The notes under the pieces: model-generated
The model's input: the letters and a program-made list of their open reading frames with translations, nothing else
The model's database searches: none
What the model was told of the DNA's origin: nothing
Shown here: positions 10,800 through 44,308 of the stretch, piece by piece
Layout of the letters: each line of letters begins with the position of its first letter
How positions within the stretch are numbered: position 1 is the first letter of the stretch
Made by a program: the position numbers and the translations under genes
Virus record (IMG/VR): IMGVR_UViG_3300029812_000129
Coordinates: 5,332-69,331 of that record
Reading direction: 5' to 3' (one strand)
Source of the DNA: a virus
Length of the DNA stretch: 64,000 nt

Positions 10800-13787
10800 T
10801 TAATATAATCTCGGTCTTAAGCTGGTAGCATTACCGCTAACAAATACTTTTTCATCTACGCCCCTTGATATGGCTTCTTCTAATAAAGCAATGTCAACAT
10901 CTTTTGAAACATTTATTACTATATTTCTATTATCATAGTATTCCTGAGTATATCCACCCTTTAACCCTCTTCGGATCTCATACAAAGTAGGTAATTTAAT
11001 ATTTGGTAAATTAAATGATTCTTTTGCTTGCCCCTCGGATTCCTTTTGTAGCCTTTGAAGCTCAAGACGGAGAGAATAAGATTGTTCTCTTGTTAAGGTA
11101 ACCCCTTTAGCTAATTTTTTGATAGCTTCCAGTTGTTGCCCAACGGTTATCTCCCCAAGTTCTTGACGCATATCTAATATACGTTTTTCTAATTCAAATT
11201 TAGACATTTGCAATGATCTGCTTCTATCTATTATAGATGCTTCTAAATTTAGTGCTGCCGTAGCCCCTTGCGTAGCACTTATATAGTCTAATGTACTTTG
11301 TTCTAAAAATAATAAAGCACTCTCTTTTTGTAAAGGTTCTATCATACCAGCTATTTCAAGTTTTTTCTGTGCCATTACCAAATTATATTTTTCACTTTCT
11401 AAATTTTGACGAGCAGATATAATAGTCCCTTTTTGCTTAATTATATCTATTTCTTCTGTAACCATACCTAAAATCCTTTTTTCTTTTTCTAGGTTTTGAC
11501 GAGCTTTTTCTAAGGGGTCTCTTATAGAAACAAGTTCTAAATCTGCTCTTACCTTCATCATGTTAATAGCTTCTTTTTGCTTATCTGCTAATACACTATT
11601 TTCGGTAGCAATTGCTGCCAACTTTTTGGAATCATTTGTCGCAACAAAACTATCTATGTATGCACGCAAAGCAGTTAAATACTCTTCACGTGTAACCAAT
11701 CCAGCAGCAAATTTTAGCTTAGTAATATCAAGAGTATCTGCAATTCCAGCCTGTGCTTCTGTAAGTTCTTCTGCCATATTAGCTTTTTCTCTTATGGTAT
11801 CGGCAAAAACCTTCTCCTCTTTAACTAAATCTTCATCTGTAGCTCCTTTATCTATGAGTGCCTGCTTATGCTTTTTCCACATCTCAATATTATCAATATT
11901 CCCTTTTTCGATTTCTCCAAGAGTCTTGTCAAGATATTTTTGTGTTTTCTCTCCTTTTTTCATTTCCTCCCATCTACCAAGCATACTATCTAACAATTCT
12001 TCTTCTGATGTTAATTCATTAGCTTTTGCGACAGCTATCGCTTTGTTTAAATCCCTGTTTTGATCTAAAGTAAAACCAAGTTGATATAAGTCTCTCTCCG
12101 CTTTTGCCCTTACATTAGCTTCTTCTTCTATTGTCCTAACATATTTTTTTCTACCACTCGCATTATCTCTTTCTTGTTTTATTATTTTCTTTAATTGGTC
12201 TACCCTATATTTAAAATAAATTATTTCTTCTGGAGTATATAATTCAAAAGCTCTTGCAGTCATAGAAAAATCTCCGCTATAACTGACTTTTTGCGAAGGG
12301 TCTTTCTTTGGTTGTCCCATAGATGGCACAGTAAAATCAAATTTTTGTATTTCGTCAGCAACTTTCTTATATTCTGCAAGACGTTTTACCATCATAGTCA
12401 AAATATTTAAAAAACCAGAAAAAACAGATATAGCATCTTTTATTGTACCTGTTAAACCAACCTCTCCCAAAGCATGTGCTAACTCACCTGCGATCGCTTT
12501 CATCCTTGCCATACGTTCAGAGGTAGTATCCATTATTAAAGAATATTCATATATAGCACTGCCAGTAGAATTAGCAGCAGATTCCTGCATTTGTAAAGCC
12601 AAATAACTATTATTTAAAAGTGCTGCCCAAATATCGTAAGATCTTCCTTCAGCAATCAAAGTTAAGAGTTCCATTTTCCTTGCTTTATCCATTTTTTGAG
12701 TCGCAACTATTATGTTATTATAAATTTCTTCTTGAGATAAAAGTGAACCGTTTGTATTTCTAACGATAATACCATAATCTTTTAAATCGGCGGCGTTTCT
12801 ACGGATATGCATCATGCTTGTACGGATAGCTGTTGCAACTCTTGTTGGTTGAGCACCAGTTACCTTAAGCATTGTACCCATAATTCCAGTTAGCTGTTCT
12901 AAGTTCCCACCGTAAACCTTCATCAACCCAGAAGTTCTTGCTAAGGCTTTAGCCATATCTTCTATATTAACCCCAAATTTATTTTGTACTTCATTTAGCA
13001 TATCTACTATGCCAATTATTTCATTGCCTTTTAAACCTAGTGTATGATACATAGCTGTTAAATATTTAGTTGCATTACCAAGTTCCATTTCTGCTACCTT
13101 GGTTGCTAGCAAAGTTGCTGTTTGCCCAGCCATAACATCTTCTATTATTCTTGTTGTTTTGCCCCATTCGAAAGCACTTTTAGCTACATCTTCTGTTACA
13201 GCACCAAAACCCTGGGATAATCTAAAAGTAGAATCAATTATTTTATCCATATCTGCGGAACTTATTACTCTTTTTAAATCAGCAAAGGTACTTTCTAATT
13301 TAATAGCTTCTCCAACTAAACCTTTTATTGCTGCTATCGTACCAAAAATAGCTGTTGTAGCTACTGTCCATAAAAGGACTTTACCAATTATTTCACCAAT
13401 AGGTTGAGCTGTCATTGTGGCAATCATTCCTTTATATTGCCCTTTGAGACCGCCCATCTGTCTGCCAGCTTCCTTCATCGCAACATTGCCTTTATGATAT
13501 GCCTGTGCTTGTTTATTTAATGTATCAACACTTTGATCTTGAGTACTAGATAAGCCTTTATTTGCATTTTTTAAATCCCTACCTCGTTGTATCTGTTCAT
13601 CCATGGTTTTAACAGAAACAGTACCAGCTTTTGAAACATCGACTGGCTTTACTGCTTTAGCGGAAACTCCTGTTGCTTGCTCGATTTTCTTCTGCGTTTC
13701 CTGCACTTTACGGGTTGCAGAAGCAGCAGCCATATCTAGCTTACTCATATCTGCTATGAAATTAATTACAAAATCATATCGCTTCAT
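10800..13787 (-). CDS. Tape measure protein
   Basis: 995 aa, helical and Ala/Lys/Glu-rich; phage minor-tail core; follows chaperones. Confidence 0.9.
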   Translation of the reverse strand: MKRYDFVINFIADMSKLDMAAASATRKVQETQKKIEQATGVSAKAVKPVDVSKAGTVSVKTMDEQIQRGRDLKNANKGLSSTQDQSVDTLNKQAQAYHKGNVAMKEAGRQMGGLKGQYKGMIATMTAQPIGEIIGKVLLWTVATTAIFGTIAAIKGLVGEAIKLESTFADLKRVISSADMDKIIDSTFRLSQGFGAVTEDVAKSAFEWGKTTRIIEDVMAGQTATLLATKVAEMELGNATKYLTAMYHTLGLKGNEIIGIVDMLNEVQNKFGVNIEDMAKALARTSGLMKVYGGNLEQLTGIMGTMLKVTGAQPTRVATAIRTSMMHIRRNAADLKDYGIIVRNTNGSLLSQEEIYNNIIVATQKMDKARKMELLTLIAEGRSYDIWAALLNNSYLALQMQESAANSTGSAIYEYSLIMDTTSERMARMKAIAGELAHALGEVGLTGTIKDAISVFSGFLNILTMMVKRLAEYKKVADEIQKFDFTVPSMGQPKKDPSQKVSYSGDFSMTARAFELYTPEEIIYFKYRVDQLKKIIKQERDNASGRKKYVRTIEEEANVRAKAERDLYQLGFTLDQNRDLNKAIAVAKANELTSEEELLDSMLGRWEEMKKGEKTQKYLDKTLGEIEKGNIDNIEMWKKHKQALIDKGATDEDLVKEEKVFADTIREKANMAEELTEAQAGIADTLDITKLKFAAGLVTREEYLTALRAYIDSFVATNDSKKLAAIATENSVLADKQKEAINMMKVRADLELVSIRDPLEKARQNLEKEKRILGMVTEEIDIIKQKGTIISARQNLESEKYNLVMAQKKLEIAGMIEPLQKESALLFLEQSTLDYISATQGATAALNLEASIIDRSRSLQMSKFELEKRILDMRQELGEITVGQQLEAIKKLAKGVTLTREQSYSLRLELQRLQKESEGQAKESFNLPNIKLPTLYEIRRGLKGGYTQEYYDNRNIVINVSKDVDIALLEEAISRGVDEKVFVSGNATSLRPRLY

Positions 13788-13791
13788 TAAA

Positions 13792-14019
13792 TCAACCTAC
13801 TTCTATTACTTCTTTATGTTTATATGCTCCTTCGCCCTTACGTGCTTTGTCTATTCCCTTGAACCATTTAGTAAGCTTTTCATCGTCTAACCAAATATTT
13901 TTAGGTGGTATCTCATCTTTTGGTAAATTTTTAAAATAACTTAATATACGCATTGCATGTGACAAAGCAGTAACAAAACGCCATGGACAATCTACTAAAT
14001 GAGATGTTCCTTTTGGCAT
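13792..14019 (-). CDS. Tail assembly chaperone C-terminal part (gpT-like, reached by -1 frameshift)
   Basis: The -1 frame from the A AAA AAC site (14088-14094) is open into this ORF. Confidence 0.75.
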   Translation of the reverse strand: MPKGTSHLVDCPWRFVTALSHAMRILSYFKNLPKDEIPPKNIWLDDEKLTKWFKGIDKARKGEGAYKHKEVIEVG

Positions 14020-14084
14020 TATAGTTTCTAAATTATTAAATTCCTGAGCAATGCTAACAAGATTTAGAAAGGCATCACCCTGAG

Positions 14085-14726
14085 CTAGTTTTTTACTTCA
14101 TTGGCATCCTGTGAATCTAAGTTATAATAAGCATTTTGTAAATCAGTGAACAGATTACCGTGTAAACTTTCTTCCATCTCTTCCATCGTTTCGAACATTC
14201 TACTACCATCTTCGTTGACTGTAGCGTAAAAAAGCACAATCTCATTGAAAATCCTAACATAGTATGCAGTAAGCATATTATCTGTACGAATTTTCTTGAT
14301 CTGTGCTCTTAAGTCATCTATAGATTTTTTTTCTAAAGCAGGTAATTTATTAGCTTTTGCCTTAGCAAAGCTTTCTTCATACTCTTTTTTAAATTCATCA
14401 GAATTAATATCTTCTAAACCTTTTTCTTGTAGCTTTTCTTCTATTTCATTTACTAAATTAAAATCCATTGCAACTAATTCTTCTATACATGTTTCTTTAG
14501 ACATTTCAGAAATAGTATTATCTAATATAATAGATTCCTTACTATTTTTATCATCAAAACATTTAAGCATTTCTGCACGGGCAACAGTAGCCTTTTCGAT
14601 AGCTTCTATTCTTGCACCATGTGAAATAGTCTGAATATTCACCTCTGCATAATTACCTTTTCCATCTTCAATCTTAACCAATTTCTTTTTCTTATATAAA
14701 TCTTTAATATCTTTTTTTTCTCCCAT
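14085..14726 (-). CDS. Tail assembly chaperone (gpG-like)
   Basis: Between tail tube and tape measure; ends GTA AAA AAC TAG (slippery site). Confidence 0.75.
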   Translation of the reverse strand: MGEKKDIKDLYKKKKLVKIEDGKGNYAEVNIQTISHGARIEAIEKATVARAEMLKCFDDKNSKESIILDNTISEMSKETCIEELVAMDFNLVNEIEEKLQEKGLEDINSDEFKKEYEESFAKAKANKLPALEKKSIDDLRAQIKKIRTDNMLTAYYVRIFNEIVLFYATVNEDGSRMFETMEEMEESLHGNLFTDLQNAYYNLDSQDANEVKN

Positions 14727-14746
14727 TGTCCTACCTCCATATAGTT

Positions 14747-15712
14747 TTAGTGTTGAGGGAGGATTCCTTGCCCCCCCTGTAAATAAACCAAACCCTTCGG
14801 TCGTTGAAGTAATTTGGTTTTGTTGTAAGACACAGCAAAGTTGCTATCAAAAGAAGTTCTGAGTGTTATTACTTTAGCCTTTAAACTTCTTATTGACCCG
14901 ATTATTGTGCCCCTGGTTCTGTGCGAAGCTTTAACAACATCGTAGTGTCGGAAGCCATTTTTCTCTACGCAAGTCTTAGTCGGGTTATTCTCCCATATCT
15001 TTGCCCTCCTTGGTTTTATAATCCACTCAAAACAATTGATAACAGGTTTTTCATCGCAAATCATAGAGATAGCATCATTGCTATGCTTCTTTGAAAGCCC
15101 AATCTCTAGTCTTCTTTTCTTGGTTTCATATCCGAAAGTAGCCTTACAAGATAAACCTAAACTCAATATTTGCTTTCTAAGATAATTCTTGCCCTGCTCA
15201 ACTAATGAAAACCATCTACCATATCTGTATTTTGCGTGATTAAATTTAACCTCTTCAACCACAACCTGACAAATATTGATTCTCTTCCCCATATCTTTTA
15301 AAAATCGTAATGTGGAATCCTTTCTACACCTAGCAGAGGGGACTAATTTTGCAGAGATTCTATTGTTAAACCGTCTTGCCCTATATCTCAGTTTCCTTGA
15401 TCTTCTTGAACGTCTATAATTGCTTCTCTGCTTCATTAATCTTTTAACATCCTGTCTTAATTCAATTTGACCCTTAAAAACCACTTCATTGGTTTTATCG
15501 TTTACAATAGCAACCCCCACCTTTTTAGCCCCATCATCAATTCCTACCACAAAAGAGCCAACTGGATTTTTAATTGCTCTTTTTAGTTGAATCGTAAATG
15601 GCATTACCTGAACCACTTTGGCCTTGCCTGCTTTCAACAATTTTCTGCCTCTTGCTGGGTGACAGGGCAACAAGGACTTGCCTGTCTTGTCAATCACAAA
15701 TGTTTTTTGCAT
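14747..15712 (-). CDS. isrB: IsrB RNA-guided nickase (IS200/IS605 OMEGA family)
   Basis: PLMP-like N-terminus (FVID..G.SLLPCHPA.GR.LL), RuvC-I GIDDG, Arg-rich bridge helix RRSRRSRKLRYR, RuvC-II VEEVKF, RuvC-III HSNDA; no HNH; 321 aa. Confidence 0.85.
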   Translation of the reverse strand: MQKTFVIDKTGKSLLPCHPARGRKLLKAGKAKVVQVMPFTIQLKRAIKNPVGSFVVGIDDGAKKVGVAIVNDKTNEVVFKGQIELRQDVKRLMKQRSNYRRSRRSRKLRYRARRFNNRISAKLVPSARCRKDSTLRFLKDMGKRINICQVVVEEVKFNHAKYRYGRWFSLVEQGKNYLRKQILSLGLSCKATFGYETKKRRLEIGLSKKHSNDAISMICDEKPVINCFEWIIKPRRAKIWENNPTKTCVEKNGFRHYDVVKASHRTRGTIIGSIRSLKAKVITLRTSFDSNFAVSYNKTKLLQRPKGLVYLQGGQGILPQH

Positions 15713-15926
15713 TTAAGCAATCTCCTTTCGGGAAAATTTTGCTCTCGGAAATGTTGGAGTCGGATTATTCAGAACTGAGCACATTCTAACGTCCATTGTT
15801 AACTCCTAACGTAGCTGGTCACTTCACCCGCAACAGAATAGCTTATTTCCCAGCTTATCCTCGGAGCGACTAATTAAAATCGATTAGTTTTGATAACCTT
15901 CTATCAACTATTGCTAAGCTCCCTCA
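14754..15926 (-). mobile_element. Non-autonomous IS200/IS605-family isrB element (no tnpA)
   Basis: isrB plus upstream structured RNA, bracketed by 8-bp inverted repeats TGAGGGAG (14754-14761) and CTCCCTCA (15919-15926); inserted between tail tube and chaperone genes. Confidence 0.65.
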
Positions 15927-15935
15927 TTTAAGTTC
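15713..15935 (-). ncRNA. omegaRNA (HEARO-like) for IsrB
   Basis: 223-nt gap upstream of isrB with several hairpins and HEARO-like words GACCAG-CTACGTT and AACATTTCCGAGAG; boundaries approximate. Confidence 0.7.
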
Positions 15936-17159
15936 TTAAGGTTTCGATCCTCTATAAATAGTCATATTTGTATTGGCAGTAATTTTGAAATTAAATGTTT
16001 GTGTTAAATTATCTCCTACCCTTGAAGTATGGCCTTCACCAACAATCTCTACATTTGGTATATAAAGGGTCTTTAAAACAGTAGTGTTATCATCTGGATC
16101 AAGAATCTTAATTTCAATCGGAATTGCTGTATCAAAATCCTCTAATCCATACACAGGGTTTGAAGCATCTAATGCTGCCCCTGCACAAAACTTAGCAAAA
16201 GCATCACCATCTCTATCTAAGATAGAAATATCACCTGTTATTTCTGGAGTATCAATAACGACAGCGACTTTATTCTCGTTCCCCATTTCCAAAATATTAA
16301 TATTAGGATATGAAATAGAAACATTAATACTTTGAACTCTATCTAATTTTCCCGCATTAATTACTACAGGAATGTTTTTACCTTTAATGCCACTTGGATA
16401 AACCGTTTCACCTTCATGTACGGTTGAAGCGAATGTTTGCTGTGTTAAACAAGGATATATTACTTCAATTACAGCATTTAATGCAGGTACAGTACCGAAA
16501 ACTATATCATCGGTTGCTGCCACATAATTAAAGTCCTTTGTACCAGCTATTCTTTCAGCTTCACTTCCTTCATACATTTTTACGCCATCAATAACTAAGC
16601 CTATGATGTTTTTATCTGTACCATAGTTTCTGGCTCCACCATAAGTAGCTGTATCAAGCTCAAACGTAACGGTCGAGTTATCTCCAACAAACTGTTCGTA
16701 TGCAGCAGATTGATACACCCAATGCTTATTGTCTGACATAAATGTCATTGATTCCGTAGCGTTACCGTCAACGGAATAACGATAATTTAAAGCAGTCAAT
16801 TGTGCGGCATAAATAACACCAGTTTTTAGAGCTAAATCACCTATCTCTTCTCTAACAGGGAAAATAAAATTAACCTTCTTTATGTTCTCTGCTGTCATTA
16901 CAAAAGATGTAGGTGGTGTAGCAGCGTGTGGATCACCTCCATGTACTAATGTAAGTAATTCACAATTAGTGTCAAAAGCCTCTGTATCAATAGTAACATC
17001 TGGAACATCTTTTACTACTGAAACAACGGCAACATTGCCTAGTTCCTTTATATCTTCGGACGGGAAGTCCGTAGTGCTTCCTAGCGATTGCAACCTATCA
17101 ATGATGGTGCCACCAGCAGCCATCAGTATCCTATCACTTTTTAAACGAATTATAGACAT
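15936..17159 (-). CDS. Major tail (tube) protein, probable internal Ig-like insert
   Basis: Duplicated DR(L/V)QS...E(L/M)GN...V.D.P motif; position after tail terminator. Confidence 0.7.
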   Translation of the reverse strand: MSIIRLKSDRILMAAGGTIIDRLQSLGSTTDFPSEDIKELGNVAVVSVVKDVPDVTIDTEAFDTNCELLTLVHGGDPHAATPPTSFVMTAENIKKVNFIFPVREEIGDLALKTGVIYAAQLTALNYRYSVDGNATESMTFMSDNKHWVYQSAAYEQFVGDNSTVTFELDTATYGGARNYGTDKNIIGLVIDGVKMYEGSEAERIAGTKDFNYVAATDDIVFGTVPALNAVIEVIYPCLTQQTFASTVHEGETVYPSGIKGKNIPVVINAGKLDRVQSINVSISYPNINILEMGNENKVAVVIDTPEITGDISILDRDGDAFAKFCAGAALDASNPVYGLEDFDTAIPIEIKILDPDDNTTVLKTLYIPNVEIVGEGHTSRVGDNLTQTFNFKITANTNMTIYRGSKP

Positions 17160-17186
17160 ATGTTTTCACCTCCTTTTAAAAATATA

Positions 17187-17669
17187 TTATTCAAGTAAAT
17201 AAGTTTTTATATCTACTCTAATAGTAATTTGATTATATATTCTTGGAGAAGCAGTTGTATTGAGCTTATCCAAATTTTCAAAACTTATATTCCCTAATTT
17301 TATTGGTGTAGCAAAATTATAATCATATAAAGCAATATGCTTATTCTTTAAATTAATTTTTATAGCATCTGCTATATCGGATGCTTGTCCATCTAAATTA
17401 CTTTCCGTAAAAACATCTATTATAAATCTTCTTGCAGTAGCAGTCTTGACGTTACCCATTTCAAAGTCTTCATCATCTTCTGTCTGTAAAATAATAGAAA
17501 CTGCTGGTAAATTATTTAGAAAGTCAGTTGATTTATCATCGGGGTAAGCTTCATATACTGTAACATTAGTAAAGCCTCCATCGCTTAAAACAGTTACCAT
17601 GTAAGAATAAAGTTCTTGACTTATTAGGCGAGATAACCCCATCTTATTAGCCAATAGCAAACACCTCAT
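17187..17669 (-). CDS. Tail terminator-like protein
   Basis: LPAVSI, E.G, FIIDVF pattern; synteny. Confidence 0.55.
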   Translation of the reverse strand: MRCLLLANKMGLSRLISQELYSYMVTVLSDGGFTNVTVYEAYPDDKSTDFLNNLPAVSIILQTEDDEDFEMGNVKTATARRFIIDVFTESNLDGQASDIADAIKINLKNKHIALYDYNFATPIKLGNISFENLDKLNTTASPRIYNQITIRVDIKTYLLE

Positions 17670-18189
17670 TCATCGCTGCAATCATTTTACTAAAAAATCT
17701 TGCGTCTACATATTCAGAAGTTTTATCAAAATATTTATGTGCTGTAATTGGTTTGTTAACATCCATTATGTGACCGCCACTTCCAACATTTATCCATTTA
17801 TCGTGTCTATTCCTATCTTTGGTTGGTTTATGTACTCCGCCAACCTCATCAATGAAATAACCTCTATAGGTACCCTGAAGTAATTTAGTACCTTCTTCTA
17901 TTTCTTCCCAATAATGGGCTTGTGAAGTCAGAATACGTACATTCCCGATGCCCGAAGACCAAGTAGCTCTATTAAAATTACCTACTGAATTAAAGATAGC
18001 TCTTTTAAGTTGACCGCTTTGCGTCCATTCTGGTCTAACATAAGATTCTTCTAAAAATTGTACAGCTTCCATTGCCCCGTTACTTGCTATAAAATCCAAT
18101 ATTGGAGCTGTTTTAAATTTAATAGCACCAACAGTTTCTTTAATCCCTTTGGTTACTCTTTTACCGTTACACTTTACTATTACCTGCAT
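17647..18189 (-). CDS. Tail completion (HK97 gp10-like) protein
   Basis: SGQLKRAI, YWEEIEEGT; synteny. Confidence 0.55.
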   Translation of the reverse strand: MQVIVKCNGKRVTKGIKETVGAIKFKTAPILDFIASNGAMEAVQFLEESYVRPEWTQSGQLKRAIFNSVGNFNRATWSSGIGNVRILTSQAHYWEEIEEGTKLLQGTYRGYFIDEVGGVHKPTKDRNRHDKWINVGSGGHIMDVNKPITAHKYFDKTSEYVDARFFSKMIAAMNEVFAIG

Positions 18190-22441: not shown

Positions 22442-23377
22442 TTAAGATGTAATATCCATCTTGTATATCCTATCAGTATTAACTAAAGCAACACCAAACT
22501 GACGATATATGTGCATATTCCAAACCAATGTGTCTGCATCGAGATTCTGCTCCGCAGCAAAATCACCGATATAGCCAGTGATTATTCCCTGTTTCTTAGG
22601 AATAATAAATAGAACATTGTCAGGAATAAGCTGTACATCGTTGCGATCCAAACATTCATCCAGGTATACTAACGGGGCACCCAAATAAGTACCCAACTGT
22701 CCTTTCAAACGTCTTTCAGCATTAGCCTCAGGATCATAACCATGGTCAAAATCAGTAATCGGAATAACAGCAGGAAAACGACCAACTACCGCCTGAACTC
22801 CACCCTTATCCATAACGTACCGAATAGCAGCTTTGATAGCAGTTTTCGCAGTCGCACCAGCAGCCTCCCAATCGGTTTTCGTGATTGTGCCATAATTATC
22901 ACCAGAAGTAATTGCAGCCTGAAGTGTTGAAAAGATATTAGCACCCATGAGCTTTCTGGCTGTATCAATAGCTTCAGCCTGTAATTCAGCTAAAGTACCG
23001 AATCTGCCAGCTTGCAACTCAAACAGGAGAGCTTCTGGATTCACACTTAAAAGATCTAACACAAATGTAACCCATTCAGCCGACCATTGAGTTCTCTCAG
23101 CAAAGCTACCATGAGCGTGAATGGTTCCACGCAATCCCTTGCGAGTCTTAAACTTAGGATCATCTCCTATGTTGTAGTTACGTGTTTCACCTAAGAGCGT
23201 AGCGGTATCAACCATTTCATATCTACGAGTAATATCCTCAATGACTATTTCTGCTAACACCCTACGGCCTTCAGGGGTTTTGGCTAACTCCATCATCTCT
23301 TCTTTAAGAGCAGCTTTTTCATCAGAATTATAATCTTTAAGAATTTGAGCTTTAACGAATTCTTTTACACTAATCAT
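22442..23377 (-). CDS. Major capsid protein (HK97 fold inferred)
   Basis: 311 aa; follows protease and decoration genes; G.LG.Y.GAP..; downstream hairpin. Confidence 0.75.
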   Translation of the reverse strand: MISVKEFVKAQILKDYNSDEKAALKEEMMELAKTPEGRRVLAEIVIEDITRRYEMVDTATLLGETRNYNIGDDPKFKTRKGLRGTIHAHGSFAERTQWSAEWVTFVLDLLSVNPEALLFELQAGRFGTLAELQAEAIDTARKLMGANIFSTLQAAITSGDNYGTITKTDWEAAGATAKTAIKAAIRYVMDKGGVQAVVGRFPAVIPITDFDHGYDPEANAERRLKGQLGTYLGAPLVYLDECLDRNDVQLIPDNVLFIIPKKQGIITGYIGDFAAEQNLDADTLVWNMHIYRQFGVALVNTDRIYKMDITS

Positions 23378-24993: not shown

Positions 24994-25352
24994 TTTCCCT
25001 CCAGTTTTATTGTGGCATCTTCAATTGTCATTTTCACTCTCTGCCCTATCTCGGTAACAAAAGATGGGATAAACCCTAAATGGATTCTATTATTATCTAA
25101 TTTTAAAGTGCAGTATTCACTTAGTTCTTCACCATCATATTGGTTTTTTTCAATACCCACTACTGTCCATGTATTTTCTAATTTAGCCACTTGCTTTTCT
25201 CCTTTTGTCTTTTTCTTTTTCCTCCAAGAACTCATACAAACCGCATAGCGTTGGTTCGTATCTTTATATTCTTTTTTCATTGTTTCATTAGACATGCACC
25301 TATGGATGAATTTTTCCTGTTTTTCTTGTTTATGAGGAATTGGAATTGGCAT
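24990..25352 (-). CDS. Small head-associated protein
   Basis: MPIP.P...E....FI.RCM...QR.AVC...W motif typical of genes next to phage head proteases. Confidence 0.5.
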
Positions 25353-25879
25353 TTCTTCTCCATTTCATTGTAAGACATAATTCTGGGTGACTCGCTTCAC
25401 TCATTTTTTGCCTTGTTTCTGCAGAGTGCTTTTTGCCCTTATGGGCTTCACTCAATTTCCTTTTATGTTCTTCTGAAAGTTTTCTGCCCTTTAATGCTTC
25501 ACTTATTTTTCTTCGTGTTTCTTCTGAATATTTCATGCCCTTGTGAGCTTTACTCATTTTCCTTTTAGTTTGTTCCGAGTGTTTTATCCCCAGATTATTC
25601 CCAGCCGTTGGAGAAATATTGTATTCGGGAGCGAGTGAGTTTATATACCGCTGTTCCAATGGGATTAATTCTTTTAGTGTCTGAACGGTCTCAAGCACAC
25701 TAAACTCAAATGCTCCCTTCCCATATTTATTAAAAGCACTTTGTAGGTGTTTATTTATGTGATTATTTTTTTTTAAGGCAATGACGATGGTTTGATATTC
25801 TCTTGGGAACATTAATCGCACTACCAATATATATTTTGCCATTATATGTATTTAAAATTCTATAAATTCCTGCGGTCAT
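25330..25879 (-). pseudogene. GIY-YIG homing endonuclease with NUMOD3 repeats, frameshifted at an A9 run
   Basis: ATG 25879 reads [21 protein letters not shown]...LKKK*; removing one A from 25766-25774 joins it to KKNNH...LQSAFNKYG...[12 protein letters not shown] repeats. Confidence 0.8.
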
Positions 25880-26079: not shown

Positions 26080-26438
26080 TAGACCCCCAATTTAGAAAAA
26101 ACAAATGCGAATATGCCAGATGCCGACACAATAAAAGCAAAAAGCTTAAGATTGGCTTTCCATCCTGTAACAGCATACTTAACCTCTTCAAGAGATTTAT
26201 CAAATTTCTCCATTGATATTTTATCGGAATCTCTGCCTATCTTTAGATAGCCCATACTATCTTGCAAACGTTTAATATCTATTTCCTTGGGACATGTATC
26301 TTCCCTCTTACCCCAAGATTCTTTTATACCAACTAAAACTATTTTTAATTCTGTAAGTTGATTCCCTTGTTTAATTATTTCATCAAAACATTCTCTTATA
26401 GTAATTCTACCGTTTCCATCCCTATTCTTCTCTTCCAT
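26079..26438 (-). CDS. Coiled coil plus C-terminal transmembrane protein (holin-like)
   Basis: C-terminal LFAFIVSASGIFAFVF. Confidence 0.4.
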   Translation of the reverse strand: MEEKNRDGNGRITIRECFDEIIKQGNQLTELKIVLVGIKESWGKREDTCPKEIDIKRLQDSMGYLKIGRDSDKISMEKFDKSLEEVKYAVTGWKANLKLFAFIVSASGIFAFVFSKLGV

Positions 26439-27933
26439 TTATAAGCCCTTTCACTAATAGTTCTTTGGATTTAGCATCTAAACTATCTAAGAAATTCCCC
26501 AGCACTGCTTTAAGACTTGTTTCTTTGACGTCTACCTTTTCATCATCCGTATCCCTGTTGCTTGGAGTGCCAGGAGTTGATTTTGAAAATGGTAGCTCTG
26601 GAACAACAAAAAACTTATCATCTGTTTTTTCACTTTTCTTTAATTCTAGTTCTTCGTCATAATCTAAATCCATTGTACCCATACCTGTATGCTTAGAAAC
26701 CAATCCCCTATCGTAAAATAATCCAATAAATGTTTTCAAAACATCATCTATGGCAAGACTTATTTGACTGAATCTAATTGAAGGATATGTTGGAAGATTA
26801 TTTTTTTCAGCTATTCTTTTATACAATCTATCCTCTGCCCAACGAGCGATTTCGTCTCTTTCCAATTCAACAATTTCACAAAAGATTTTAACAAGCTTTT
26901 CAACATCACGTCTGCCCTTAGAATCCGTTAACAAAAATGAATATCCTAGCCCTTCTCTAACTTCATTATTAACAGTAGAATATTTATTACTATCTGTTAG
27001 AAGCCCAGAATCGGGACACTCTATTTGTAACTCAATCCTATGATTCCAGACAAGACCGAAGTTCTTAGCTGGATTAGCCAGCAAGTTTCTAAAATTAGTA
27101 AGTTCTTGCCCATCTTCAACAGGGAATTCATCTGTACCCAGTTTGAATAAATAAATAGTGTTAATTATTCCGTCTAAAATAGCAAAATCAGCTTCTTGTA
27201 ATTTTCTCTTTCTCTGTAATGCATCAAATACACCGCAAAGTTTTGGAGTAGCATATCTTTCCCAATCGAATCCAATTGAATTAAAATAAGAAGCACTTTC
27301 TTCATGAAACCCTAATATTGTTTCGCCAACAGCCATTCCTTGATCTCGAAGTTTTTTGGGTTTATATTCCCCCTCAAAAATAGGATATAAATATTTGTTA
27401 TTGATTTCAGCAAGAGCTTCTTGATTGTAAAGATCCTTTTCACTTCTGGAAACCTTCAGACCTAATTTATTTTTTTGACCAAGAATAGACCCGATTATCC
27501 TACCGCTCACAGGATCAATTAATGTTAATCCAATGGGAACCTTTAGCATTCTCGGTTTTTTGCCAAAATAATATTTCTTTTCTCCCCACATCTCAACAAT
27601 CCAAAGATTAGAATATATTAGACTAGCCAGATAAAAACATTTAAAAAAATGGGCTAAATCAAGATCAAGAGCAATATTATCAAAAACTTTTTTTATAGTA
27701 TCTTTAGGATCTTTTTTTGTTCTATGCGTGAAACGCTTAGTTCCTAATGCTATTTGAGTAAGAAAAATATTTTGGACAACACCATCTGTAGCAAAATAAG
27801 TCCCTGATTGCTTCATCTGATCCCATACACTCATTTTGTTTGCTTGTTTAAATTTTGTAGGAGTAAAAGACCGCATATCAACATTAGAACCTTTTACAAT
27901 ATTCTTTTTAGAATCCTTTTTCTTTTTATCCAT
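26422..27933 (-). CDS. Portal protein
   Basis: 503 aa between terminase and head protease; D..EE near C-terminus. Confidence 0.75.
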   Translation of the reverse strand: MDKKKKDSKKNIVKGSNVDMRSFTPTKFKQANKMSVWDQMKQSGTYFATDGVVQNIFLTQIALGTKRFTHRTKKDPKDTIKKVFDNIALDLDLAHFFKCFYLASLIYSNLWIVEMWGEKKYYFGKKPRMLKVPIGLTLIDPVSGRIIGSILGQKNKLGLKVSRSEKDLYNQEALAEINNKYLYPIFEGEYKPKKLRDQGMAVGETILGFHEESASYFNSIGFDWERYATPKLCGVFDALQRKRKLQEADFAILDGIINTIYLFKLGTDEFPVEDGQELTNFRNLLANPAKNFGLVWNHRIELQIECPDSGLLTDSNKYSTVNNEVREGLGYSFLLTDSKGRRDVEKLVKIFCEIVELERDEIARWAEDRLYKRIAEKNNLPTYPSIRFSQISLAIDDVLKTFIGLFYDRGLVSKHTGMGTMDLDYDEELELKKSEKTDDKFFVVPELPFSKSTPGTPSNRDTDDEKVDVKETSLKAVLGNFLDSLDAKSKELLVKGLINGREE

Positions 27934-28476: not shown

Positions 28477-30045
28477 TTATCCACTGTATGCTCCTAATGT
28501 CTGATGATTTGACATCCAAAAACCTTGAGGAATTATAGTCTTTTTAAAATCCGATAAACCATAGATTCTGCGAATTTCTCTTTGGAAAGCCATACAAGCA
28601 GCCGATGTAAGCGTGTGGTCAGAATATCTCCCGTCACAAACATACTCTTTTCTGCCAGAACCTAAAGCTCTTTCTCTATGGGCCAACCAATCTGTAACAA
28701 TCTCGTCATCATAAGGTAATATTATTTCATTATTCATAACTAAGTTTTGTAAACATTCAAAAGCAAAATCTTTTGTAGGACGTTTTATCGGATCGCCAGT
28801 TTTCAGGTCTTCGCCAATCTCAATCTTTTCATTCATAACTAAAGGATCAAGAATTTTTAAAAGCTTCTTGTTTAATTGCAACATTTGATGTAGAGATCCG
28901 CCTCTACCAGTTGCATCGGTTGCAACACCAGCAGTATTATAATAAAAAGCATAAACAAGATTTGCTAAATCCACTTGTTGCGGATCTGTTAATCTTTCTG
29001 CATGAATTCTGGCAATTAATCTTATCTTCTGCTGGCCTTCTCTTATCTCATCTGACCAAACTAAAATTTCAGTAGGGTCTATATTGTGACCCCAATCTAT
29101 ACTTATCCAAACATTTTTATATTTTCTATGCTTATCTGGTAATCTTAAAAAATGAGCTAATGGCATATTGTTTAAGTTTTCAGCTAATATCCGCAAATAA
29201 ACATAATCTTTAGTTATAGTAGGTTTATATTTATCATATCTACCGTTTGCTCCCTTTGTCCCGACATCTAAACATTTCATAAACTGCTCATGTGGGAACA
29301 TCGGGTTTTCGGGGTTGCCATGTTCTGCTAAGATCTGTCTTAGGTAATCAGGGCTTCTACGACTACCATAAAAAGCAATACGAGATTCTCTTTCTGCTTT
29401 TCCCCAATGTGCTCTGTGCATAGCTGTCACAATATAATGATTCCAAGATTTATCTTTAGTTAAATTATAAAAAGTATTTCTCACACCATTCGGTACGCCA
29501 TATATAACAAATCTTGAATCCTTGCCTGGGTTTAAACACTCTCTTAGTTCGGCCCAGCCTTCAGCCAGATAATCTTGTGCCTCGTCTACCTTAATGTTTT
29601 TAGTATGCATACCATGGACATTGGTTCCATTTATACCAGGAATTCTACCGAATATTTTTGCTCTGGTATGAAAAACAAGCATATAGTCTGGTTTACGTAC
29701 AAGTCTTTTAATTAATTCTCTTGTAATTCTTACTTCGTTTAATCTATCAACAATTTTTTCCATTAATGGTTTTAAATGAATTTCTTGTGGAGCCGTAATT
29801 AATGTTTCTTCACCAGGTGTAAAAGGTAGAACAGAAGCATCTCTTATAATCGATTCCGTTTTTCCAACACTCCTGGCATTGGCGTATGCCTTATCCGGTA
29901 TATCCAACGTGTATTCATACTGATAATCATATACCCTGTATGGGGTTACCCCGTCCCTATCTTTCCAAAAGAACTCTGGAAAATCTATTGGATCAGTTAA
30001 AATATCTAATAATGCTTCTTCTTCTACTGAAAGTGGTTCTAACAC
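28477..30045 (-). CDS. terL: Terminase large subunit (GTG start at 30045 preferred over 30114)
   Basis: ARSVGKT Walker A, VDEAQD Walker B, GVPNG, IDWG nuclease, DATG.G, DH; GGAGG 5 nt upstream of the GTG. Confidence 0.9.
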   Translation of the reverse strand: MLEPLSVEEEALLDILTDPIDFPEFFWKDRDGVTPYRVYDYQYEYTLDIPDKAYANARSVGKTESIIRDASVLPFTPGEETLITAPQEIHLKPLMEKIVDRLNEVRITRELIKRLVRKPDYMLVFHTRAKIFGRIPGINGTNVHGMHTKNIKVDEAQDYLAEGWAELRECLNPGKDSRFVIYGVPNGVRNTFYNLTKDKSWNHYIVTAMHRAHWGKAERESRIAFYGSRRSPDYLRQILAEHGNPENPMFPHEQFMKCLDVGTKGANGRYDKYKPTITKDYVYLRILAENLNNMPLAHFLRLPDKHRKYKNVWISIDWGHNIDPTEILVWSDEIREGQQKIRLIARIHAERLTDPQQVDLANLVYAFYYNTAGVATDATGRGGSLHQMLQLNKKLLKILDPLVMNEKIEIGEDLKTGDPIKRPTKDFAFECLQNLVMNNEIILPYDDEIVTDWLAHRERALGSGRKEYVCDGRYSDHTLTSAACMAFQREIRRIYGLSDFKKTIIPQGFWMSNHQTLGAYSG

Positions 30046-30254
30046 TATCCCTCCAAAATCATTCTGTGGGGAAAGATTTTTGCTTGCTTCCCAAGTCCCG
30101 CCGACCCTGCTCATATGTATGTAGATTTACGACAGAACAGCCTATACCAGAAGTCTTTAGCCTACTTTCGTTTCTAAGCAGAAACTATCGCAAGTGTATA
30201 CCCAACTGGCAAGCCCTTTACCCCAGGTGTGGGTTATGTTCGGGCACCACAGAT

Positions 30255-31935: not shown

Positions 31936-32010
31936 TGGGACGTAGTGTAATGGCAATGCACTTGCTTTGGAAGCAAGCTTATGGAGGTTCAAGTCCTCCC
32001 GTCCCAACCA
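31936..32010 (+). tRNA. tRNA-Pro(UGG), CCA encoded
   Basis: Acceptor TGGGACG/CGTCCCA; anticodon arm CTTGC-TTTGGAA-GCAAG; T arm GGAGG-TTCAAGT-CCTCC; ACCA end. Confidence 0.9.
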
Positions 32011-36766: not shown

Positions 36767-37055
36767 TAAAACAGTACCTAAAAAAACAATAATTAATAAA
36801 AATAATGGTATTTTTATAATTTGCGAATTGATTAAACAATGTTTTGAACTTTCAGAAAACCAGGTAAAACGTAAATGTTATGGAAATACTTTAAATAAAA
36901 ATTGTAAAGAAGACTGCATATATTATTTTGATAGAACTATTAATTGTGCGGGGAGAGTAGAAAATACAAGATGTGATAATTGTTTTATAAAGAATTTAAA
37001 CTTAAACCATTTATGTAAACATGCAAAAAGGTTTTATTTTAATAGGAAAGGATAA
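36759..37055 (+). CDS. Cys-rich hypothetical protein
   Basis: Coupled ORF. Confidence 0.45.
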   Translation: MDNKTVPKKTIINKNNGIFIICELIKQCFELSENQVKRKCYGNTLNKNCKEDCIYYFDRTINCAGRVENTRCDNCFIKNLNLNHLCKHAKRFYFNRKG

Positions 37056-37056
37056 A

Positions 37057-38004
37057 ATGTCTACTATAGCAGAAGTTACAAAAGATGTTAAGAAAAAATA
37101 TGGAGATACAAAAGTAATAAAAGCATCTAAGTTAAATAATTATGGAGTTTTGCCAACTGGTATTTTAGCAATTGATAACATTTTAACAGATGGTGGATTA
37201 CCAAAAGGTTGTATAGTTGAAATCTTTGGTAATGTTGCTTGTGGTAAATCAACACTATTATTAAATATAATTGTTCAAGCACAAAAATACGGAACGGTCG
37301 TTTTGGCAGATACGGAATTTAGATTCTTCCCAGAATATGCTAAAAAATGTGGAGTTGATACAGACAAGTTATTAGTAATACGTCCAGAATATGCGGAAGA
37401 AGCTTTAGAAATAGGAGAAATGTATTTGAGAAGCGGAGACGTTTCTTTATTTGCCATTGATTCGGTTGCAGCCCTTGTCCCTAAAGCAGAGGTTGAGGGT
37501 TCTATGGATGATCAGCAAATGGGTCTGCAAGCCAGAATAGTAAGCAAAGCACTAAGAAAGCTGACAAGCGTTGTTAGCCAAACAGGATCTACGATGATTT
37601 GTATCAATCAACTTCGCACCAAGATAGGTGTTATGTTTGGGAATCCAGAAGACACGCCTGGTGGGAGGGCATTAAAGTTCTTTTCAACTGTTAGGCTTGA
37701 TTTAAGAAAAGTCAAAACATTAATTTCGGAGAATGATAAAAAAACACCAGTAGGTTCAAGGTGTAGGGTAAAAATAATAAAAGGGTTGGGGGGAGAAGGG
37801 AAAACCGCTGAAATGTGTTTGTTGTATGGCAAAGGGGTAGACAAAATAAATGATTTAATAGAAGGTGGGACAATAAACGGATCTATAAAACTTAATGGTA
37901 TGACTTATACTTATAAAGATGAAAAAATAGCTGTTGGTAGACCAAAACTATATACATTTTTAGCTGAACATCCAGAAATACAAAAGGAGATATTAAATGG
38001 TTAA
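37057..38004 (+). CDS. recA: RecA recombinase
   Basis: GGLPKG.IVEIFG...GKST, IDSVAALVPKAE.EG, QAR..S.ALRKL, INQLR.KIGVMFGNPE.TPGG.ALKF. Confidence 0.95.
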   Translation: MSTIAEVTKDVKKKYGDTKVIKASKLNNYGVLPTGILAIDNILTDGGLPKGCIVEIFGNVACGKSTLLLNIIVQAQKYGTVVLADTEFRFFPEYAKKCGVDTDKLLVIRPEYAEEALEIGEMYLRSGDVSLFAIDSVAALVPKAEVEGSMDDQQMGLQARIVSKALRKLTSVVSQTGSTMICINQLRTKIGVMFGNPEDTPGGRALKFFSTVRLDLRKVKTLISENDKKTPVGSRCRVKIIKGLGGEGKTAEMCLLYGKGVDKINDLIEGGTINGSIKLNGMTYTYKDEKIAVGRPKLYTFLAEHPEIQKEILNG

Positions 38005-40134: not shown

Positions 40135-40326
40135 TCAGATGTCTTTTTGACGGTTCCGAGGGGATAGGTATACATAGTTTTCTGGATCTGGCGTTCCAAG
40201 TCGGAAAGGATAGAGCGGGCAAGAATAATCTGTGCATCCTCTGACTATTGTTGGCTGGCAATTGCAACATTCTAAACAAAAGTTTTTTACAGCGTCTTTT
40301 CTTGAAAGTTTCATTTTTTTAGCCAT
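40135..40326 (-). CDS. Small Cys-rich protein
   Basis: CLEC...C....CPLYPFR.G. Confidence 0.55.
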   Translation of the reverse strand: MAKKMKLSRKDAVKNFCLECCNCQPTIVRGCTDYSCPLYPFRLGTPDPENYVYLSPRNRQKDI

Positions 40327-41252
40327 TATTTCTCCTCATCATTTTTTTTAGCCAATAATTCTTTATACCAATAGGGCAACCCATGGGTAGCATTTCTTAA
40401 AATATCCTTAATTACAAATTTGAATAATTCTTCCTTAATATTTTCTTTTTCTTCAGAGAGTATATCTTTATTTACTTCTTTGATTAAGCCGCCTATATCT
40501 TTAGGCTCTCCAATAATTGATCCTTGTTCTCTTAAATGTTGGAGAGCTTTTTGCCAACGTGCTTCACTTCTAAAAGTAGTTATATATGTCTGGATAGAAG
40601 CTTTTATAGATTCTTTTTTCCATTGTGTATTATGTCTTTCTTTAAATGTTTCCCTAACATATTTAGTGAATAAAGGGTATAGTCTACTTCCGATATATAC
40701 ATCTTGTTCGTAGTTCTTGATAACAATACCTTCTATTTTTTCATTACCCAAATAACTATCGGTTTCAAAAAAATTCTTTAGAAAATCGATATTTTCTACA
40801 TCACTTGGTATTTCACCTTCAAATAATTGTGGGACAATATCGACATTTAGATTTTGTGCAATTGTTTTCAAAGATTCTCTGTCTGAGTATTTTCCATTAA
40901 ATGTAGCATCAAATAAAACAAGATTATTGGTTGGGACTCTCTCATAGCATAATACATTATGTTTTGGGTTTTGTAAATATTCAAAATAGAAATATGTGTT
41001 TGGAGGATATGATAAAATAGTATTTTCTATGGATAAAATATAACTTGCTGCTTTAAAAAACATATTATTGATATGCTCACGATGGATAATCACGCCTTTG
41101 CTACGCATTGTCAATTCACCATCTTTGTTTATGCCTACGCCAAATAGCGATCCATCAACTTTTTCTTGAATAATTATATTACCAACCAAAGCATTCTCGG
41201 TTCTATGCGATCCAAGTGTTAAAATTTTCCCATAAGATGGTATTGTTTTCAC
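40326..41252 (-). CDS. ATP-dependent RNA ligase (Rnl2-like); GTG start at 41252 preferred
   Basis: EKVDGS motif I, FEY, FD, VP.L, EGIVIK, KYV. Confidence 0.8.
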   Translation of the reverse strand: MKTIPSYGKILTLGSHRTENALVGNIIIQEKVDGSLFGVGINKDGELTMRSKGVIIHREHINNMFFKAASYILSIENTILSYPPNTYFYFEYLQNPKHNVLCYERVPTNNLVLFDATFNGKYSDRESLKTIAQNLNVDIVPQLFEGEIPSDVENIDFLKNFFETDSYLGNEKIEGIVIKNYEQDVYIGSRLYPLFTKYVRETFKERHNTQWKKESIKASIQTYITTFRSEARWQKALQHLREQGSIIGEPKDIGGLIKEVNKDILSEEKENIKEELFKFVIKDILRNATHGLPYWYKELLAKKNDEEK

Positions 41253-41253
41253 T

Positions 41254-41451
41254 TTATCCCCTTTCTGGATTTCTCTGTATAAGAATTCTATTATATTTTT
41301 TATATATCTCATCACAATGTTTTAAATATTCTAATTTTTTATTATAATTGATTTTCCATAAAATTCTTTCAATTCTACATTTGGAACAATTACATGTTTT
41401 TTTCTTTACTGCTTGATAACCACCTGATGCATAAGGTTTTATCCAACTCAT
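41254..41451 (-). CDS. Hypothetical protein
   Basis: AAGGAG RBS. Confidence 0.45.
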   Translation of the reverse strand: MSWIKPYASGGYQAVKKKTCNCSKCRIERILWKINYNKKLEYLKHCDEIYKKYNRILIQRNPERG

Positions 41452-41470
41452 TATTTCTCCTTTAAATTAA

Positions 41471-41561
41471 TTGGGGGCTGTTGTGTTGGAAAGAATACTG
41501 GAGACATATTTGTATGGTCGAAGACAGTGGAGCAGGAATGGGGAACCCTGCCAGCCCCCAA
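41471..41561 (-). ncRNA. Structured intergenic element, copy 1 (GGGGGCTG...CAGCCCCC stem)
   Basis: Perfect 10-bp terminal stem; GC-rich; stem and RBS flank shared with 46704-46771. Confidence 0.45.
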
Positions 41562-41564
41562 ACC

Positions 41565-41759
41565 TTAACTACATATTTTTGCTACTATTAAAAATCCTAA
41601 TGCTAAACAGAAAAACACAACTGCTGGTAACCACAATGGGCTTAATACCCATATCCATGACCAAGTTATTTCTCCACATAGCTTTAGCACAATAAATACT
41701 ATTCCTAATAGTCCTGCAAAACAAATTCCCCCGCCACTTGATGCTCCCGAATTATCCAT
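41565..41759 (-). CDS. Small two-TM phage membrane protein
   Basis: LGIVFIVLKL.G.ITWSWIWVLSPLW. Confidence 0.65.
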   Translation of the reverse strand: MDNSGASSGGGICFAGLLGIVFIVLKLCGEITWSWIWVLSPLWLPAVVFFCLALGFLIVAKICS

Positions 41760-41944
41760 TACTTCCTCCTGTTCTCCTGTATTTTTAAAAACTCATTTAC
41801 CTTTTGTTGTTTTTCTTTATCGGATAAATCTTTAGCAATATTATATTTCCTGAATTTCTTTAACTTATTCATTAATCTGATTCCTCTATCTTTGTATGAT
41901 TTACTTTTTATTTTCATTCTACCTACTTTGCTTCCTTTTGACAT
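41759..41944 (-). CDS. Hypothetical basic protein
   Basis: Coupled ORF, GGAGG RBS. Confidence 0.45.
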   Translation of the reverse strand: MSKGSKVGRMKIKSKSYKDRGIRLMNKLKKFRKYNIAKDLSDKEKQQKVNEFLKIQENRRK

Positions 41945-42156
41945 TATACCTCCTTATCCAATTCTTTTAAAGTTTGTTTTACAATTTCTCTTGGGGTTAG
42001 CCATCTTTGCCCAACAGGCGGTATCTTATTATCAAAAATCCTTTTCTCTCCATAACCATATATTTTACTTCTATCATTTATTAAACAAAGAATTAAAGTT
42101 CTTTTTAATTCATTTATTATAAAATCTTTTTGTTCTAATAGTTTTGTTTTATTCAT
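41944..42156 (-). CDS. Hypothetical protein
   Basis: Coupled ORF. Confidence 0.45.
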   Translation of the reverse strand: MNKTKLLEQKDFIINELKRTLILCLINDRSKIYGYGEKRIFDNKIPPVGQRWLTPREIVKQTLKELDKEV

Positions 42157-44254: not shown

Positions 44255-44308
44255 TAATCTATTCCCTCCATATAATGTCTTTTATGACTGTAAAAACCTT
44301 TGCAAATA

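Follow-up and report, generated by a model that had tools for sequence, protein, structure and literature searches.

The stretch of DNA described here, the window, comprises 64,000 of the 69,331 bases of viral record IMGVR_UViG_3300029812_000129, a record that carries direct terminal repeats; positions are those of the window unless a compared locus is named. A 1146-nucleotide (nt) insertion, made up of an isrB gene and the predicted omegaRNA gene upstream of it, splits a hairpin between a tail gene and a chaperone gene of this phage. The best reading, to which we would give a probability of about 0.6, is that the insertion is a homing element that spreads by RNA-guided nicking of element-free co-infecting phages. 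The parts are of a known kind, namely those of an IsrB-omegaRNA (ISC1) element. What is new is that the RNA of this lineage lies below the Rfam threshold, that the exact ends of the element and its predicted natural target can be read, and that the element sits in a phage late operon at a hot spot for homing endonuclease genes.

The features on which the argument is built are the following; L numbers, here and below, are labels of compared loci on viral, metagenomic or prokaryote-genome contigs.

14778..15923, minus strand: the whole inserted element, 1146 nt, from a three-way comparison of the junction with L018 and L060
14747..15712, minus strand: isrB open reading frame (ORF), 321 amino acids (aa), an IscB-family RuvC protein without HNH, from the ORF, profiles, an alignment and an AlphaFold2 (AF2) model
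15707..15923, minus strand: predicted omegaRNA scaffold, about 215 nt, from a covariance model (R1) and covariation
15924..15943, minus strand: candidate guide of the omegaRNA, directly 5' of the conserved scaffold
14727..14777, minus strand: right flank, with a G-run on the candidate side of the target-adjacent motif (TAM), the hairpin loop and 3' arm (14755-14762) and the ribosome-binding site of the next gene
15936..17159, minus strand: 407-aa upstream host gene, probable major tail (tube) protein (ORF; stop codon at 15936-15938)
14085..14726, minus strand: 213-aa downstream host gene (ORF), tail assembly chaperone-like by position only

On the minus strand the order is the 407-aa gene, a gap of 223 nt, the 321-aa ORF, 20 nt, the 213-aa gene, a 75-aa gene and the tape measure gene. 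When viral contigs were scanned with the tail protein alone and with the chaperone alone, no relatives came up, and the empty site came from an alignment-based scan of metagenomes. Fifteen relatives of the tail protein were found at E<=1e-5, and an alignment of ten of them pulled out 56 metagenomic loci, six of which also show a homolog of the chaperone, so that the junction can be read. At this one site between conserved genes the window is occupied, and both L018 and L060 are empty. The original prediction, which was made from the letters of the window, had proposed a search for relatives with an empty tail-chaperone junction, and L018 is such a relative. Its tail protein is 89% identical to that of the window, and the L060 tail protein is 87% identical over the last 60 residues. 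Homologs of the 213-aa gene follow directly after the tail gene in both (72% identity in L018 and 48% in L060). The gap between the two genes is 67 nt in L018, 69 nt in L060 and 1209 nt in the window.

The L018 spacer consists of 12 nt after the stop codon, an 11-pair hairpin rich in G+C (DNA fold z -2.88 when intact) and an A/T-rich stretch with a ribosome-binding site. At the left junction the window is identical to L018 over the 12 nt and into the beginning of the 5' arm of the hairpin, and the scaffold begins there. At the right junction the same 5' arm is picked up again, with loop, 3' arm and ribosome-binding site after it; the sequence of the right flank is GGGGGGG in the window vs GGGAGGA in L018, i.e., the same length with two A-to-G differences. 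When the element is removed in silico, the window and L018 align as one high-scoring segment pair across the junction, with 77% identity over 4.1 kb. The ends are ambiguous within a 5-nt repeat, GGGAG, present at both junctions, and 14773-15918 would be equally possible. The insertion is precise to this repeat, and either a pair formed by a transposon-encoded motif and a TAM (TEM/TAM) or microhomology would fit it.

The 321-aa protein is, by architecture and predicted fold, an IsrB. It matches Pfam family RRXRR (PF14239) with E 2.9e-46 and the NCBIfam equivalog for the RNA-guided endonuclease IscB (guided_IscB, NF040563) with 187.1 bits, above the cut-off of 175; the latter match is in two stretches, one on each side of the HNH position. 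No HNH family of Pfam matches the protein, and a relative with 51% identity (L003/L015) carries about 80 additional aa with an HNH motif at precisely the place where the window protein has no such insertion. Residues D59, E153, H210 and D213 are invariant across 47 aligned HNH-less relatives and correspond in position to the GxDxG, E and HxxD motifs of DtIsrB (8dmb), and the window protein keeps 53 invariant columns. The original claim of an IsrB with all of its RuvC residues and no HNH is thus borne out by the alignment, the profiles and the fold. The AF2 model, for which the alignment of relatives was the input, has a predicted local distance difference test score (pLDDT) of 84 and a predicted template-modelling score (pTM) of 0.82. 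Its closest fold is DtIsrB (8dmb_P) over the whole length (Foldseek E 4.6e-24, TM 0.76/0.74), and the fold covers the PLMP domain, RuvC and the C-terminal TAM-interacting domain of IsrB. By sequence, the best solved relatives are HfmIscB (9k2z, E 6.5e-40, in two stretches flanking its HNH), TbaIscB (9k30) and DtIsrB (8dmb, E 2.3e-23).

A database search gave 391 proteins at E<=1e-10 among 1308 candidates. A FastTree phylogeny of 119 of the 120 best matches listed, rooted at the midpoint and built without an outgroup or a reference IsrB, parts 93 HNH-less proteins (307-321 aa) from 26 HNH-bearing ones (392-408 aa) at one split with a support of 0.998. Together, the tree split, the alignment and the AF2/Foldseek match therefore point to an IsrB by architecture and fold whose HNH-less lineage is probably a near neighbour of an IscB lineage. 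Cultured phages also have genes of the IscB family: tblastn of the IsrB against 50,697 GenBank phage records gave matches in 27, all below 60% identity and none spanning 80% of the query, and the IscB-family genes in these 27 records are mostly annotated as HNH endonucleases. A blastn search with 13000-18000 of the window found no match among GenBank phages.

The isrB frame has no stop codon inside the element and runs about 10 codons into the flanking phage DNA. Its last 31 nt (14777-14747), which hold about 10 residues and the stop codon, are derived from the flank, and the flank-derived C-terminal end (residues 315-321) is modelled as disordered with pLDDT 33. The frames of its relatives also stop at or just beyond the end of the element.

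The predicted omegaRNA lies in the gap upstream of isrB. This gap (15713-15935) abuts the stop codon of the 407-aa gene, as had been stated in the original prediction, and the 3' end of the scaffold contains the Shine-Dalgarno sequence and the ATG of isrB. In 13 relatives from viral contigs the upstream regions can be aligned over the roughly 215 nt that precede the ATG and over the start codon itself, and not further upstream. RNAalifold predicts 38 pairs from seven of these upstream sequences; 97.0% of the alignment cells are paired vs 27-46% when the partners are slid by 1-3 columns, and 25 of the 38 pairs have compensatory changes vs 2-8 in the slid controls. None of 500 shuffles of this alignment reaches any of the five measures used.

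The covariance model R1 was built on these seven sequences, and L004 and L012-L016 were left out of the training. R1 finds 15707-15926 in the window with 205 bits, which is as high as the best members of the RNA family score; the only other match in the window has 14.8 bits (E 0.86) and is no real one. The model recovers the untrained L004 and L012-L016 with E values of 8.7e-31 to 3.8e-5 (5.9e-9 for L014 and 3.8e-5 for L013), it matches seven of 23 loci from prokaryote genome contigs, every time directly upstream of the gene, and it matches none of the empty-site relatives. In an alignment of 19 sequences fitted to R1 itself, 96.2% of the cells are paired and 30 of the 38 pairs have compensatory changes (slid controls: 32-44% and 7-12), so that the omegaRNA fold claimed at the outset is upheld by covariation. 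An extra 5' helix, GGAGC at 15922-15918 with GCUCC about 70 nt downstream, also appears by eye to covary. The structure rests on covariation and not on energy, because the single-sequence fold of the window RNA is no better than shuffles (z -1.18).

The region had also been called HEARO-like, and this description holds only by way of relatives. HEARO is absent from an Rfam search of 13500-17500 at E<=1, and the whole window at the gathering cut-off gives a tRNA only. The original prediction had proposed a search with such models; run on a 281-nt stretch alone, the HEARO model (RF02033) scores 11.8 bits (E 2.9), below the gathering threshold of 83 bits. Two aligned relatives match the full HEARO model, likewise below threshold: L014 with 44.4 bits (E 7.5e-6) and L013 with 38.9 bits (E 1.7e-4). 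Thus, as the window RNA is itself sub-threshold and the weak HEARO matches come from relatives that R1 finds, it is a divergent relative of the HEARO/omegaRNAs outside the curated family.

A decayed copy is present at L004:3775-4350, where the omegaRNA is intact (R1 181.8 bits) and an internal deletion has reduced isrB to an N-terminal ORF of 91 aa and a C-terminal piece that is out of frame.

These protein and RNA data bear on the suggestion that the window element is an inactive or decaying relic, with an ORF and an RNA that are intact by chance or because the element arrived recently. We consider this very improbable. The ORF is full length and keeps the four catalytic residues and the 53 invariant columns, and the RNA scores as well as any in its family. 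Decay does occur in the family, L004 having kept its RNA and lost part of its gene; in addition, the window ORF has lost its normal stop codon and reads about 10 codons into the flank, and the right-flank motif is two positions off the empty site. Against the second of these points, the ORFs of the relatives likewise stop at or past the end of the element.

OMEGA nucleases are known as helpers of IS200/IS605 transposons. A Y1 transposase (PF01797) is absent from the six frames of the 69,331-bp record, in line with the original statement that there is no tnpA; the same search was positive in six of 14 control genomes, and it covered the phage record, so that a host-encoded TnpA acting in trans would fall outside it. 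The element is present as a single copy in the record by DNA, by the Pfam RRXRR family and by the RNA model, i.e., it is not multi-copy like an IS200/IS605 element.

An ordinary non-autonomous ISC1/IS200-IS605 passenger would have to be considered here, which a host TnpA moved into single-stranded phage DNA and whose nuclease only restores the element after excision. Such a passenger would follow the canonical biology of the family (PMC10055086, PMC4810608; statements that we refer to these two papers, to PMC9581776 and to PMC13565253 draw on excerpts of each). ISC elements are mostly non-autonomous and insert without duplication 5' of motifs of the GG, GA or ATGA type (PMC4810608), and the right flank in the window begins with GG and resembles the start of the scaffold, as in a TEM/TAM pair. 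Weighing against the passenger are the phage's lack of a TnpA, with the reservation just made for a host-borne one, and the single copy. In addition, when a single genome from each of 185,579 prokaryote species was scanned with a few peptide patterns, a search of limited sensitivity, 23 loci were found; the close HNH-less forms among them are four, from three metagenome-assembled genomes (MAGs). On balance we think a passenger of this kind unlikely.

One argument for homing comes from the guide. In this family, according to the excerpts, the 16-20 nt that immediately precede the scaffold act as the guide, which is derived from the flank (PMC9581776, PMC10055086). Among the elements, the sequence on the 5' side of the scaffold shows no conservation. 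In the window this sequence is identical to L018 over 21 nt, from 15944 to 15924, immediately 5' of the scaffold. The scaffold start at 15923 and this identity with the empty site place the predicted guide in the stop codon and the 12-nt spacer: a 16-nt candidate guide (15924-15939) consists of the 12-nt spacer, the TAA stop codon and one coding base, and a 20-nt one ends at 15943, 5 nt into the tail gene. The 16-mer has a single exact match in L018 (5721-5736) and a single occurrence in the window, and no further match with up to three mismatches is present in either. A guide that derives from the flank and matches the empty site had been foreseen; its placement in the last 15-20 nt of the tail gene was off by about 12-15 nt. 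In L060 the guide stretch has diverged by several substitutions and a change of length, because of which an L060-type phage would not be a target.

Comparison of the L060 (180-252) and L018 (5722-5791) spacers places the most diverged part in the 12-16 nt that separate the hairpin from the stop codon of the tail gene, i.e., in the part that the guide is predicted to read, and the hairpin and the ribosome-binding site are conserved. This divergence could be an escape from targeting, or it could be chance.

In the empty site the protospacer is followed by GGGAGG, in the occupied site by GGGAGC. The element's own allele therefore retains the protospacer and differs from the empty allele only from the sixth base after it. 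Some resemblance between the two motifs is expected of the family because of the IS605 precedent, in which the motif at the RNA end differs from the TAM at two positions only and yet that end escapes cleavage (PMC10055086). ISC elements insert 5' of GG, GA or ATGA motifs (PMC4810608). A TAM consensus from the right flanks of the relatives was tried and dropped: L002 and L004 share about 60 nt past the stop codon and their upstream genes are unrelated, and because of this shared stretch the 3' ends of the element must differ among sublineages. Likenesses between the scaffold start and the right flank in the relatives were judged by eye, with few empty sites.

The shared stretch in L002 (4937-5000) and L004 (4350-4400), whose upstream host genes are unrelated at BLASTP E 1.2, contains a small hairpin and a G-rich motif that resembles the window target. 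It may be the remnant of an earlier target or the true end of the element.

We can now describe how the element would home. It is a transposase-less OMEGA element of 1146 nt, isrB with the omegaRNA upstream, co-oriented with the late operon. The omegaRNA would most likely be made by read-through from the strongly transcribed tail gene, because the hairpin, once split, is unable to form and 14000-17400 retains no terminator-like site. The RNA would be processed to a guide-bearing form in which, judging from the behaviour of the family, the first 16-20 nt before the scaffold are the guide. The IsrB-RNA complex would then nick the sense strand of a co-infecting relative with an uninterrupted junction, such as L018, and the nick would be converted at a replication fork. 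Phage replication and the phage RecA would carry out the repair from the element-bearing genome and so copy the element in. Machinery that could do this copying is encoded by the phage, which has RecA, as the original prediction had it, and a PD-(D/E)XK exonuclease. The element's own genome would presumably be spared, because its guide match is followed by the GGGAGC... of the scaffold and not by the GGGAGG... of the hairpin.

Several observations weigh against this homing model. Expression of the RNA, its processing and the nicking are steps that we infer, and a nick triggers recombination less strongly than a double-strand break does. As GGGAG follows the protospacer in both alleles, self-protection requires a TAM that is read at position 6 or beyond. 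The 5-nt repeat and a subterminal hairpin in the 3' coding end are also expected of IS200/IS605-type transposition; the hairpin near the 3' end of the element is no better than shuffles (z -0.77). The flanks show no co-conversion gradient against L018 within 1 kb either way of the junction, where identity is 54-92% per 50 nt, and L018 DNA is about 77-80% identical, which is low for efficient recombination. Just one occupied allele of the tail-chaperone junction was found: tblastn placed IsrB in none of the 56 metagenomic tail-relative loci, and an exact search for the junction 17-mer found it in no other viral contig. No patchy distribution in close relatives therefore documents a spread by homing.

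The low identity of L018 also bears on a further explanation, that the element is a weapon of competition: its nickase would damage co-infecting relatives whose junction is uninterrupted and so reduce their yield (marker exclusion), and the element would be copied rarely or never. The guide matches an essential late operon of a relative that is about 77% identical, and homing endonucleases can gain by hitting competitors that are too divergent for gene conversion (PMC13565253). A single nick in an intergenic spacer would be easily repaired, and the same logic predicts homing wherever homology suffices; a weapon thus differs from homing in degree more than in kind. We regard it as improbable.

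The homing model draws further support from what other phages have at the same place. In two loci with tail proteins about 50% identical to that of the window, the tail-chaperone junction is filled by other nuclease ORFs: a 136-aa LAGLIDADG ORF (PF14528) in L021 (1325-1735), and a NUMOD3 ORF followed by a separate HNH ORF in L022 (5815-6434). The junction is therefore a site used by classical homing endonuclease genes, and on these gene contents it appears to be a hot spot for selfish nuclease genes. Phage homing endonucleases include nicking HNH enzymes such as I-HmuI. The two L022 ORFs could represent a single endonuclease gene broken by a frameshift. The tail-chaperone gap is about 230 nt in L019 and L020, as estimated from coordinates, and the L019 gap, which was checked, holds no ORF longer than 42 aa.

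Relatives of the element were found on 11 other distinct viral contigs (12 loci, L013 and L017 being near-identical). They occur singly at gene junctions and are co-oriented with their neighbours, which include tail fibre, baseplate wedge, minor tail and head maturation protease genes; L159, a relative on a MAG contig, lies between terminase and portal genes. In L008 the element is present in one of 80 loci related through the baseplate wedge gene, and the flanking genes abut in the three closest. L008 and L076-78 were considered as a second empty-site pair and rejected as too divergent for a guide match (wedge protein 66-74%, upstream protein 40-56%).

Two of these loci have other mobile elements nearby. 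In L006, on the contig of L001, about 130 nt separate the IsrB stop codon from a full-length group I intron downstream of it (L006:2342-2592; RF00028, 79.3 bits, cut-off 50). The intron seems to be inserted in the next gene, about 25 codons in, and the ORF beyond has glycosyltransferase domains; two selfish elements are adjacent here, an arrangement that recalls IStrons. In L010, a viral contig, a TnpB-like ORF (L010:1381-2568; PF07282, PF01385) lies about 430 nt upstream of another IsrB-omegaRNA element, i.e., two OMEGA nuclease genes are in tandem.

A broader proposal, to which we would give slightly less than even odds, is that a phage-resident IsrB/IscB lineage has given up transposition and lives purely as RNA-guided free-standing homing genes. 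Such genes would rival the LAGLIDADG and HNH genes for the junctions of virion operons, take their guide from late-gene read-through and spread by a nick and the phage RecA. If this proposal is correct, the resemblance between GGGAGC and GGGAGG would be a self/non-self switch.

The phage itself reads as siphovirus-like from its gene content. Genes that place the element in its genome, or that bear on its copying, are the following.

28477-30114: large terminase
26422-27933: portal
22442-23377: capsid-like gene
10800-13787, minus strand: tape measure protein (PF10145)
37021-38004, plus strand: RecA/UvsX-type recombinase (PF00154, E 2.4e-81; phrog_97)

Profile matches also identify genes for a primase/helicase and for the PD-(D/E)XK exonuclease mentioned above. 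The naming of the 407-aa gene needs comment. It precedes two chaperone-like ORFs and then the tape measure gene. No Pfam family matches the protein and its AF2 model is poor (pLDDT 58); the best Protein Data Bank matches are tail tube proteins of the P74-26 and T5 types, and that with the long tail-tube protein of P74-26 (E 2e-5, TM about 0.4, from a low-confidence model) is a weak hint. Because it relies on position and on low-confidence structural matches, the name major tail (tube) protein is reasonable but has weak support. The original prediction of a tail tube gene thus agrees with the position and with the kind of protein matched, and the poor model adds little to it.

Four other features of the window deserve mention. 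A 170-aa ORF between the portal and capsid genes (25330-25842, minus strand) has four NUMOD3 motifs, belongs to phrog_314 and resembles a free-standing homing endonuclease. An RNA-repair set (40326-46063, minus strand) consists of an RNA ligase (phrog_548), RtcB (phrog_1075, E 7.4e-121) and a nucleotidyltransferase (phrog_388, E 1.2e-96), and may counter host defences that cleave tRNAs. A tRNA gene (31936-32007, plus strand; RF00005, 59.6 bits) lies where the leftward structural genes meet the rightward replication genes. Finally, a 257-aa tyrosine recombinase of the XerC/D type (61452-62225, plus strand; PF00589, PF02899) is encoded between the genes for a polymerase processivity factor and a clamp loader.

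The interest of the locus is that it holds, in one place, all of the parts with which TnpA-independent homing between phages can be tested: an intact nickase gene, a covarying RNA, exact ends and an empty target that matches the guide. It also poses the question of how a nickase avoids itself when its target motif is nearly repeated at its own RNA gene. In practical terms, the predicted nickase-RNA pair is compact (321 aa and an RNA of about 235 nt), and Rfam does not cover the RNA. In a plasmid population, an OMEGA element has been reported to spread independently of TnpA, and TnpA-independent homing of OMEGA elements between co-infecting phages is called theoretical in a 2026 review, as far as its excerpts go (PMC13565253). 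Beyond that theoretical case, a search of the openly accessible literature found no paper that describes a phage IsrB/IscB homing element.

How does the window element compare with known systems? Like HEARO (RF02033), the window RNA lies immediately 5' of an IscB-family ORF and has relatives, L014 and L013, with sub-threshold matches to the full model; unlike HEARO, it scores 11.8 bits itself vs a cut-off of 83. The protein is most like DtIsrB of the DtIsrB-omegaRNA complex (8dmb; Hirano et al. 2022, PMC9581776): both are in the range of about 320-350 aa, with a PLMP-type N-terminal domain and a RuvC fold that is split by an arginine-rich bridge helix. Both also lack HNH and have a C-terminal TAM-interacting-like domain, and DtIsrB is the best structural match, with catalytic motifs that align. 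As in the excerpts of that paper, the gene for the guide RNA directly precedes that for the protein and extends over the Shine-Dalgarno sequence and start codon of the latter. Unlike DtIsrB, to which it is 26% identical, the window protein is by sequence nearer to HNH-bearing IscBs (9k2z) and has the motif LLPCHP vs PLMP. Furthermore, the window scaffold is about 215 nt vs 262 nt in DtIsrB, and the place of the TAM is taken by GGGAGG vs NTGA (PMC9581776).

The element resembles ISC1 and ISC2, as they are presented in the excerpts of Kapitonov et al. (2016; PMC4810608), in being a 1.1-1.7-kb element that encodes a Cas9 homolog alone, in the lack of a clear target duplication, in the short G-rich motif next to it and in having its ends defined by empty orthologous sites. 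Unlike them, it is a single copy in a phage without a Y1 transposase and lies within a late operon of structural genes, at a junction occupied in other phages by classical homing endonuclease genes.

The proposed homing is similar to the "cut-and-copy" of TnpB/IscB (Meers et al. 2023, PMC10055086) and to "transposon non-restorative homing" (PMC13565253), so far as the excerpts describe them: the guide is derived from the flank and the element-free joint is targeted, the target-adjacent motif resembles the motif at the RNA end, and the copying is by host or phage recombination. The difference is that cut-and-copy involves a double-strand break on the sister chromosome after excision by TnpA, whereas in the window phage a transposase-less nickase would act on a co-infecting phage.

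Finally, the element is like the free-standing homing genes of phages, such as the T4 Seg and Mob genes (PMC13565253, in excerpt), in that one selfish nuclease gene lies between conserved genes and is present or absent in relatives. It differs from them in that recognition would be by an RNA guide and a short motif vs a long site that is read by a protein, and in that self and non-self would be told apart by the insertion itself vs polymorphism in a nearby gene (PMC13565253).

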